In this document: piece after piece, positions 1,623 through 3,819 of the stretch | Layout of the letters: each line of letters starts with the position of its first letter | How positions within the stretch are numbered: the first letter of the stretch is position 1 | Source: Thermotogota bacterium | GTDB taxonomy: Bacteria > Bipolaricaulota > Bipolaricaulia > UBA7950 > UBA9294 | Assembly (NCBI GenBank): GCA_039679545.1 | Contig: JBDKUT010000068.1 | Span: 1 to 17,413 of the forward strand | DNA length: 17,413 nt | Direction of reading: 5' to 3' | Program-made: the position numbers and the translations under genes | Notes under the pieces: generated by a model | What the model was told of the DNA's origin: nothing | What the model saw: only the letters and a program-made list of their open reading frames with translations | Database searches by the model: none

Positions 1623-1736
1623 GCGCCGACCTGAGCGACTAGGGTTCCGCTGCGACGGCAGGCCTGGACCGAGCGTCGCAAGAGCCACCGTGCGTAGCAC
1701 CTGATCGGACAAGAGCCGGAAGGGAGTAGGCGGCAC
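1623..1736 (+). ncRNA. ykkC-yxkD family riboswitch aptamer (variant, subtype-2-like)
   Basis: Conserved blocks CTAGGGTTCCG (1639-1649), CTGGACCGAGCG (1664-1675) and CACC...CGG-ACAAGAG-CCG-GAAGG (1698-1723). Stems: P1 GCGAC/GTCGC, inner hairpin CTGC/GCAG, P3 CCT/AGG and CGG/CCG. Located in the 5' UTR of a transporter. Confidence 0.88.
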
Positions 1737-1777: not shown

Positions 1778-2667
1778 ATGGACGGATCGTCTCACGGTCG
1801 TGCCGTTCTCGAAGCTCTCCTCGTGACGTTCCTCTGGTCCACCTCGTGGATTCTCATGCGGATCGGGCTCCGCGAGATCCCAGCGCTGACGTTCGCCGGT
1901 CTTCGGTACACGATAGCGGCGCTCGTCCTTCTGCCGGGGGTCTGGAGCGCCCGCCGCGAGCTGCGAGCTCTGCCGCGGCGGGACTGGAGACGGCTTGCGA
2001 CGCTTGGCGTCGTCTTCTACGCTTTCACGCAGGGCGGTGTCTTCCTCGCGTTGACGCGCCTCGAAGCGGCTTCGTTGAGCCTCGTGCTCTGCTTCACGCC
2101 GGCGCTCGTCGCGACCGCGGGGCTCGTGACGCTCCGGGAGAAGCCTGCGGCTGTGCAGTGGATCGGCTTGGCGCTCGGTGTCGGAGGAGTCCTTCTCTTC
2201 TTCTCCCCAACCTTCTCTCGCGGGGACGGGCTCGGATTCGCTCTCGCCGGGTTCGTACTGTGCGCGAACGCCGCCGCGTCCCTCCTTGGACGTTCGATCA
2301 ACCGTCGTCGTGTGGCGTCGCCGATCGTCGTCACGGCGATCAGCATGGGCGTCGGCGCCGTGCTCCTGCTCGGCGTGGGACTCGCAACACAGGGTTTGCC
2401 GAAGCTCTCGGCGACGGGGTGGGGCATCGTCGCTTGGCTCGCCGTCGTGAACACAGCGGTCGCGTTCACCCTTTGGAACCGGTCTCTGCGGGTTCTGTCT
2501 GCCGTCGAGTCGAGCACCATCAAAACACGATGGCGATCCAGATCGCCGCTCTCGCCTGGGTCTTCCTTGGCGAGGACCTCGGTGCCGTCGGGATAGTCGG
2601 CATCCTGACGACCGTGGCTGGGACGACGCTGGCCCAACTCCGTCGTGCGGAGCGCACGACGGAGTGA
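1778..2667 (+). pseudogene. EamA/DMT family transporter with a 1-nt frameshift near 2522-2525 (pseudogene or sequencing error)
   Basis: LLVTFLWSTSWIL, PALTFAGLRY and AFTLWNRSL occur in one frame. The C-terminus NTMAIQIAALAWVFLGEDLG continues in another frame to TGA 2667. SD GGAGG at 1762-1766, ATG at 1778. Confidence 0.85.
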
Positions 2668-2703
2668 TCGCGCTTGGGACTTCCACCGCGGGCGGGGGAC
2701 CGG

Positions 2704-3819
2704 CTATCCGGCCTCCTGTGCGCTCTGCCGCAGAACGAGGCTCGCGAGCACGATCGTGAGAACGACGAAGACGAGCACGCCGGCGAATCCGACAGGCTCT
2801 TCCCACGGCGCGAGCCCTTTGACCATCACGGCCCGCAGGAGGCGATTCGAATACGTCAGCGGCACGACGTACGACAAGGGGCGCAACACGGCGGGAATCG
2901 CTTGGATCGGCCACATCATCCCCGACAGAAGAACGGAAGGCAGGACAACGAGGGGGAAAAAGACGATCGCTTGCGATTCCGTCTGGGCCAGCGCCGAGAG
3001 GAGGGTCCCAAGCCCGACGCTTCCCACCGCAAACAGGATGACCGACACGAACGCCCACACAATCGACCCGTTGATCACGATGTCGAAGACAAGCTTCCCG
3101 ATCGAGAGGACCACGAGCGACTGCACCAAGGCGATCAGCCCGAACGCGAGGACGTACCCGAGGATGAACTCGCTTCGCCGCACAGGCGACACCCAGACGC
3201 GCGAGAACGTCCCGTCGACCTTCTCGCGCACGATCGATAGGAGCGTGAGAACCGTGCTGATCAGAGCGACGACGAGTCCCATGATCGCCGGGGCGAAGCT
3301 GTCGATGAACCGCACCTCGACGCCGTACAGCTCGCGGGTCTCGATGTTTATGGGCCCTCCCTCGCCGAGGTCCATGATCGCGTCGGCCAATCCCATGCTG
3401 ACCGTCGACGCGATCAACGGGTCCGACTCGTCGACGGTCAGATCGATCGTTCCCTGGGCGGTTGTCGCGACCCCCATCGCGAAGTGGGCGTAGTAGAGGC
3501 TCGTGAACTTGTCCGGAATGCGGATCACGGCCTGATACCCCTCCTTGAGGAGGAGCCGCTCGGGGTCGTTGCCCGGGGCGAGAACCGTGACGCGAAACGC
3601 ATCGTCCGCCTGCAAGTTCTCGAGGATCGACGCCGTGAGGTCGGTGTTGTCCTCATCGATGAACGCGGCGCGCACGCCGGTGATGTCGCCCGAGAACGAG
3701 TACCCAAAGAGAATCATGGCGATCGCCGGGAGGAGCAGCATGAACACGAGCACGCGCCGATCGTGCCACAGCTGGTGCAGAACTCGCTCCGTGACGGTGA
3801 GGATTCGGTAGAGCTTCAT
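2704..3819 (-). CDS. ABC-2 type transporter permease (YbhR/YbhS-like)
   Basis: N-terminal TM, extracytoplasmic domain, SIVREKVDGTFSRVWVSPV and LLSGMMWPIQAIP...PLTY motifs. ATG 3819 overlaps the ATPase stop (ATGA). Confidence 0.9.
   Translation of the reverse strand: MKLYRILTVTERVLHQLWHDRRVLVFMLLLPAIAMILFGYSFSGDITGVRAAFIDEDNTDLTASILENLQADDAFRVTVLAPGNDPERLLLKEGYQAVIRIPDKFTSLYYAHFAMGVATTAQGTIDLTVDESDPLIASTVSMGLADAIMDLGEGGPINIETRELYGVEVRFIDSFAPAIMGLVVALISTVLTLLSIVREKVDGTFSRVWVSPVRRSEFILGYVLAFGLIALVQSLVVLSIGKLVFDIVINGSIVWAFVSVILFAVGSVGLGTLLSALAQTESQAIVFFPLVVLPSVLLSGMMWPIQAIPAVLRPLSYVVPLTYSNRLLRAVMVKGLAPWEEPVGFAGVLVFVVLTIVLASLVLRQSAQEAG

Follow-up and report, generated by a model that had tools for sequence, protein, structure and literature searches.

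Known ykkC riboswitches

Of the five published ykkC subtypes, 2d alone still lacks a ligand in the literature covered here, the latest statements on it as an orphan dating from 2021 (PMC8457001) and 2023 (PMC9881157). It regulates transporters annotated as EamA (phn_DUF6) and TauE (PMC7266159), and the accessible text of a 2020 review gives its gene simply as EamA. A small, charged, toxic compound was proposed as its ligand, and the introduction of the same paper ascribes conserved nucleotides in the tail to 2a, 2b and 2c, with 2d not listed there (PMC5912903). A search of the literature outside the subscription journals found no ligand assignment for 2d. An XMP/GMP ykkC subclass was reportedly described in 2025, for which that search gave no match.

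The guanidine-I riboswitch (RF00442) is built on a P1/P1a/P1b core with a P3 loop docking motif and carries an adenine at position 46 and an ACACGG block. In subtype 2 this marker is a base other than A, a pyrimidine in 2a and 2b, and it was reported that a pyrimidine there prevents guanidine binding (PMC8457001). The ppGpp riboswitch 2a combines a pyrimidine marker with a P0 helix, a conserved C75, an ACACCG block and an unpaired NARG linker, and is found before amino-acid biosynthesis genes (PMC6003355, PMC9881157). In 2a and in the PRPP riboswitch 2b, A74 is present, A5 and G6 as well as G104 and G105 are unpaired, and the last two contact pyrophosphate (PMC6031431). Genes for the biosynthesis or transport of amino acids or purines lie downstream of 2a and 2b. 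The (d)ADP/(d)CDP riboswitch 2c precedes NUDIX or HAD genes, and in the five rows of Table S2 of PMC9881157 that were compared it has G at the marker and an AUU/CG internal loop.

The leader and its relatives

The window, i.e., the whole stretch of 17,413 nucleotides analysed here (contig JBDKUT010000068.1), carries on its forward strand, before an EamA gene, an RNA that is real and conserved and has the ykkC fold of the guanidine riboswitch without the bases that bind guanidine. The core blocks and the P1-P3 architecture of the motif are present, and the RF00442 match, the alignment and the covariation place a subtype-2 aptamer with a four-way junction (P0-P1-P2-P3) at 1625-1734. RF00442 matched 1628-1724 over all 107 model positions (39.8 bits, E 3.2e-4 in the window search), this being the sole match in the genome, yet the score falls below the gathering score of 63 bits, and two true guanidine-I control RNAs score 96-97 bits. 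A sequence-only reading of this DNA had called a ykkC variant here and had suggested this search; the full-length match, together with the matches in genomes of the same family, puts the call beyond chance. The elements that it named are all in place, namely GGACCGAGCG at 1666-1675, CACCU at 1698-1702, the strands GCCG-A-CCU (1625-1632) and AGGCGGC (1728-1734), the loop ACAAGAG (1709-1715), and GAU (1703-1705) facing GA (1719-1720). The folding energy of the aptamer alone is uninformative, since it is not unusual (z 0.07), and the unconstrained folding minimum of the leader differs from the ykkC fold.

RF00442 matches were found in 17 of 73 other genomes of the same family, one in each, and none of the 74 genomes, the window's included, reaches the cut-off. 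A search of species genomes with a pattern turned up 36 loci, among them 16 duplicates of earlier ones and two of another gene group. The resulting alignment of window-type RNAs holds 36 members from Bipolaricaulota, Chloroflexota, Fraserbacteria and 'Thermotogae'. In 18 of these the marker C and GCACC were preset by the search pattern; the other 18, all from the same family, were found by RF00442 alone, and every one of them has the marker C and the GCACC bases. A control search with patterns on viral contigs returned mostly chance matches, and we judged five of its 31 loci to be real ykkC RNAs. One locus of the viral contig collection, used as a control, holds a purine riboswitch in tandem with a PRPP-type one (L142); its contig is probably host DNA.

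Helices and covariation

Across the 36 RNAs, 95% of alignment cells pair and double changes occur at 10 of 25 pairs. Neither any of the 500 shuffles nor any slid control reaches this level of covariation, the shuffle test being inflated by relatedness and the structure having been drawn on the window. The helices that covary are P1, P1b and the upper P3 stem. P1 (1635-1639 with 1675-1679, plus strand) encloses P1b and the invariant UAGGGUUCCG and CCRAG blocks; it is 100% paired, with double changes at three of five pairs, and P1b is 94% paired, with double changes at four of seven. A short P2 (GC/GC, 1684-1693, plus strand) adjoins a conserved purine-rich internal loop, is 92% paired and is longer in other members. 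The Rfam-style P2 hairpin GUGC/GCAC was rejected, being 72-78% paired with zero double changes. The GCACC block and P3 occupy 1697-1724 on the plus strand, as placed by the alignment and by parsing of the pocket. In the window, two bases make up the 3' strand of P3, as against three in guanidine-I and PRPP aptamers, and the base of P3 allows two registers, CCU with AGG or with GGG.

The extra closing stem that had been proposed at the ends of the aptamer, P0, is borne out. Its 5' strand lies at 1625-1632 with A1629 bulged, as indicated by the alignment, by a swap test and by mapping on the T. mathranii row; its 3' strand (1728-1734), according to folding computations, doubles as the 5' arm of a predicted OFF hairpin, and both strands are on the plus strand. 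In the swap test, run on 34 of 35 loci (the one dropped was without a start), own ends paired at -11.5 kcal/mol and swapped ends at -10.1, and none of 5000 permutations was as good. The inner part of P0 is formed by CCU (1630-1632), an insertion relative to PRPP aptamers that is complementary to AGG (1728-1730); it is conserved rather than covarying, being 85% paired with one double change.

Pocket bases and subtype markers

Pocket positions were assigned by manual mapping onto the PRPP aptamer of T. mathranii (its row in Table S2 of PMC9881157, numbered as in PMC6031431), which gives G1673 as G48, C1674 as C49, G1697 as A74, C1698 as C75 and C1700/C1701 as C77/C78. Position 1720 maps to either G96 or G97, and the tail UAGG at 1727-1730 is equivalent to U102-G105. 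The subtype marker at 1674 on the plus strand (A46 in guanidine-I, C49 in PRPP numbering) is C in 40 of 41 window-type RNAs, and position 74 is G in 39 of 41; two guanidine controls have A at both. The window RNA thus has C1674 and GCACCU in place of the guanidine-I marker and block, and the pyrimidine at 1674 agrees with subtype 2.

Two details of the sequence-only reading have to be amended. The block is preceded by G1697 and is therefore GCACC, not the ACACC of 2a/2b. The contrast of GGACC with GGUCC is not diagnostic, because both occur across published subtypes (guanidine-I rows with GGACC, a 2a row with GGUCC); the diagnostic base is C1674. The claim of nucleotide-sensing signatures is half right: the bases of the upper phosphate site are kept, but those of the tail, which touch pyrophosphate in 2a/2b, should by prediction pair within P0. 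Since the inserted CCU is complementary to the UAGG tail, the prediction for this RNA is that a site of the ppGpp or PRPP type is closed. The bases that are kept would be suited to a metal-bridged site for one phosphate, the guanidine contacts having been dropped.

The EamA gene and the likely link to subtype 2d

The reading frame downstream (1778-2596, plus strand, 272 amino acids) encodes an EamA/DMT transporter (PF00892, E 2.3e-30) and leaves the frame of its orthologues near 2522-2525, a break that the sequence-only reading had overlooked. An EamA gene is next downstream in 35 of the 36 window-type loci, the remaining locus being cut by a contig end. No purine, amino-acid or hydrolase gene lies downstream of any readable member, no TauE gene was seen at the loci gathered, and no neighbour further downstream recurs among window-type loci. 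A search of solved structures with the window protein gave one weak match (E 0.0099). The link between RNA and gene is not obligatory, as seven genomes of the same family (L191, L204, L206-L209, L212) keep the orthologue without a detectable ykkC RNA upstream; five of these form one clade in one genus.

The EamA gene had been taken as a departure from the known subtypes, but in the accessible parts of the two papers EamA is what defines published 2d (PMC7266159, PMC5912903). The window RNA resembles 2d, as described there, in its ykkC scaffold, its non-guanidine marker, the EamA gene downstream and the want of conserved unpaired tail contacts. It differs in that its long P0 with CCU/AGG has no counterpart in those descriptions and in that its EamA protein falls outside the phn_DUF6 clade, scoring 22 bits on TIGR03340 (phn_DUF6) against a cut-off of 288; the window copy also has private changes and a frameshifted gene. 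As the window protein is not phn_DUF6-like, phn_DUF6-like genes were fetched separately, the best 80 of 110 being taken; their proteins score 92-145 bits on TIGR03340, below the same cut-off. A ykkC RNA, found by a loose pattern, precedes 35 of these best 80 genes.

The phn_DUF6-linked RNAs share the pocket of the window-type RNAs: the marker is C in 39 of 39 parsed (one was unparsed), G74 is found in 36 of 39, and they too have a short P3 3' strand and a P0. The tail AGG is missing from all 40, whereas in window-type RNAs it is mostly paired, and P0 in most of them has 5 bp with long linkers, as opposed to the long P0 of the window type. The two EamA protein groups lie far apart on a quick, unfinished tree. 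With about 80 RNAs gathered in this way, two EamA clades that are distant from each other are tied to a single pocket signature. One Anaerolineae genome (G172) has two such RNAs, L029 and L218, one for each clade.

Whole-model scores do not place the window, because a proxy 2d covariance model made from the phn_DUF6-linked RNAs prefers the PRPP riboswitch (52.6 bits) to the window (39.1 bits); this model fails to separate the subtypes and was rejected as a classifier. Judged by the published descriptions, the window RNA likely belongs to orphan subtype 2d, its EamA being in a different clade. The suggestion that this is a 2d-like subtype-2 RNA with a P0 and an orphan ligand is supported, and the window RNA is a candidate orphan-ligand riboswitch and likely a new 2d member, in a damaged copy. 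The gathered RNAs define P0 and offer intact constructs with clear starts and two kinds of expression platform. They should help in the search for the ligand, and with it would come a substrate for two transporter clades that are still uncharacterised.

Two further neighbours were observed at phn_DUF6-like loci. About 290 nt past the phn_DUF6-like gene, six near-identical loci of one lineage (L061, at 2647-3816, L062, L063, L065, L066 and L069) carry a gene for a dioxygenase resembling TmpA/gamma-butyrobetaine hydroxylase, with a match of 298 bits against a cut-off of 400. It gives a weak hint to the ligand; in the protein of L061, what we take to be the position of the iron-binding HxD motif reads YTD. 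In one subgroup (L116, L118, L120, L121, L122 and L125), the phn_DUF6-like gene has a short-chain dehydrogenase gene directly 3' of it in the same orientation.

Promoter and expression platform

A sigma-70-type promoter-like site (TTGACG, 17 nt, CAGAAT) lies at 1589-1617 on the plus strand, and a -10-like hexamer is found at the equivalent place in 31 of 34 window-type loci, compared with 4.9% at upstream offsets. Given this recurrence, transcription likely begins with the first base of P0, near 1624. Downstream, folding predicts an OFF hairpin at 1730-1775 on the plus strand (1730-1737 with 1768-1775, inner stem 1743-1750 with 1755-1762), which encloses the Shine-Dalgarno-like GGAGGGGG at 1762-1769. 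The hairpin has an energy of -32.5 kcal/mol (z -3.1) and a pair probability of at least 0.96 with the aptamer core forced. With the core drawn in, the OFF state comes to -51.0 kcal/mol and the P0 state to -46.1, a gap of 4.9. By computation, then, the expression platform and the complete aptamer are mutually exclusive. No terminator was found in the leader of the window.

In the mechanism proposed, the hairpin would outcompete P0 when no ligand is present and cover the ribosome-binding region; binding of a ligand in the P1/P3 pocket, which could pay the gap of 4.9 kcal/mol, would stabilise P0 and so expose the translation start. Because P0 competes with this hairpin, an ON switch is predicted. 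A helix over the ribosome site overlaps P0 in 19 of 34 loci, without covariation (544 of 5000 permutations). In several Anaerolineae, by eye, a hairpin competing with P0 is followed by a run of U, and an ON switch is predicted for the translational and the terminator-like arrangements alike.

Private changes and the frame break in the window copy

Three bases of the window aptamer depart from its relatives: A1682G and A1713G, the latter in the P3 loop, where 34 of 35 relatives have A in each case, and G1720A in the 'GA' strand, where all 35 have G. The ACAAGAG loop and the GA strand, which had been read as features of the class, are thus private to this copy. Compared with two congeneric orthologues, the EamA gene has one base fewer near 2522-2525, so that the last 47 residues are in another frame (2524-2667, plus strand). 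Other genes of the window-type set are interrupted as well (L011, L018, L038, L050). Among 18 same-family copies, three departures from conserved positions are found only in the window and L018, both with broken genes, and none of the 15 intact copies has more than two (p ~0.02, calculated by hand with a threshold chosen afterwards). The dN/dS of the window EamA to its congeners (0.19-0.23) is like that of intact pairs, so any decay must be recent.

The window copy is likely weakened or recently decaying. The break near 2524 may instead be an assembly error. Of 234 long matches between the assembly and a congener, 10 at most show a frame change, in a noisy set with shadow frames in which error and mutation are indistinguishable. 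A programmed frameshift was considered and set aside, since no slippery site was seen by eye and the orthologues are continuous. In itself the window copy contributes little, the bases that make it unusual being private and its gene broken in the assembly, and with the copy likely weakened or decaying the relatives are the better test objects.

Ligand and alternative readings

The explanation that we favour, and hold to be probable, is that a ykkC subtype-2 leader, likely 2d, switches on EamA translation upon binding a small, charged, non-nucleotide metabolite. For the ligand, the tentative first choice is a compound carrying a single oxyanion, be it phosphate, phosphonate or something similar, as G48, C49, C77 and C78 are kept and the pyrophosphate site is predicted closed; a small toxic cation, the published guess, follows close behind. 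A phosphonate nutrient is disfavoured, because the C-P lyase PhnJ was missing from all 74 same-family genomes. A phosphonatase search also gave none in the 74, but its positive control went unmatched too, which makes this search uninformative.

Less probably, the window-type RNAs form a separate ykkC subclass, sister to 2d and with a ligand of its own. The long P0 reaching the junction sets them apart from most phn_DUF6-linked RNAs with their 5-bp P0, as do their own EamA clade and a P3 whose 5' side is longer by a base, and a window-type covariance model scores its own members, many of them by construction, at 77-142 bits and the phn_DUF6-linked RNAs at 31-68. What speaks for a single group is the common pocket signature and the intermediates on both sides: L020, L032, L182 and L183 before the window-type gene, and the window-like long P0 in four RNAs before phn_DUF6-like genes (L144, L184, L218 and, by eye, L220). 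A specific form of this reading, to which we give a comparably low rating, envisages a Bipolaricaulota/Anaerolineae class in which CCU zips P0 to the junction, the pyrophosphate site is closed and a Mg-bridged phosphate site stays; it would sense a small phosphate-, phosphonate- or zwitterion-type metabolite and control an EamA clade of its own, acting on translation in one of the two phyla and through termination in the second.

A nucleotide sensor, for ppGpp, PRPP, a nucleoside diphosphate as in 2c or another guanine nucleotide, is improbable. In its favour, the window RNA resembles the crystallised PRPP aptamer of T. mathranii (PMC6031431), with which it shares G48, C49, C75, A76, C77, C78 and U79 as well as P0, a similar P3 loop, the UAGG tail and the ON logic, and if the missing P3 base is the equivalent of G96, C1698 (C75) would be free for a guanine ligand. 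G replaces A74, the 3' strand of P3 is one base shorter and the 5' strand one longer, no purine genes follow, and the inserted CCU is predicted to pair with A103-G104-G105. In 2a/2b this AGG holds the pyrophosphate, which leaves the nucleotide reading weak; by the hand mapping the equivalents of A5 and G104/G105 are predicted to be paired, and they are not conserved across the wider group. With 2a (PMC6003355, PMC9881157) the pyrimidine marker, P0 and C75 are shared, whereas the ACACCG block, the unpaired NARG linker and the amino-acid biosynthesis genes are absent. The five 2c rows (Table S2, PMC9881157) have GCACCU, the short 3' strand and GAGGG in common with the window, but they carry G rather than C at the marker and AUU/CG where the window type has KAN/RG, their tails differ, and NUDIX/HAD genes stand in place of EamA. 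Among the rows compared, which are part of that table, none has the window-type P3 start or an EamA neighbour.

That G1720A switches specificity in nature in the way of G96A, a change that alters ligand preference 40,000-fold and turns a PRPP into a ppGpp aptamer (PMC6031431), is very hard to credit. All 35 relatives keep the G, which corresponds to G96 or G97, but this assignment is ambiguous, the change occurs in one genome only, and it is accompanied by A1713G in the docking loop, A1682G and the frameshifted gene. A divergent guanidine-I riboswitch controlling a DMT-superfamily guanidine exporter is just as hard to credit, in keeping with the earlier claim that this is no standard guanidine sensor: guanidine-I is the best Rfam match and shares the P1/P1a/P1b core and the docking motif, but the equivalents of A46, G72 and G73 are C, C and U, a pyrimidine marker is reported to prevent guanidine binding (PMC8457001), a P0 is added, and the score is well under those of the true controls. 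One RNA before the same EamA clade, from an Anaerolineae genome (L188; G202:C24, minus strand), has the guanidine-type A at the marker together with CACCGG, which fits the guanidine reading; it may be an intermediate between the window-type group and guanidine-I.

Two minor observations remain. Locus L119 has a second, partial AGGGTTCG block immediately 5' of its aptamer. On the minus strand of the window, a divergent promoter-like site at 1491-1518 (TTGACA, 16 nt, TACACT) faces a hydrophobic reading frame of 223 amino acids without a Pfam match and a winged-helix (HTH_34) gene (477-1449).
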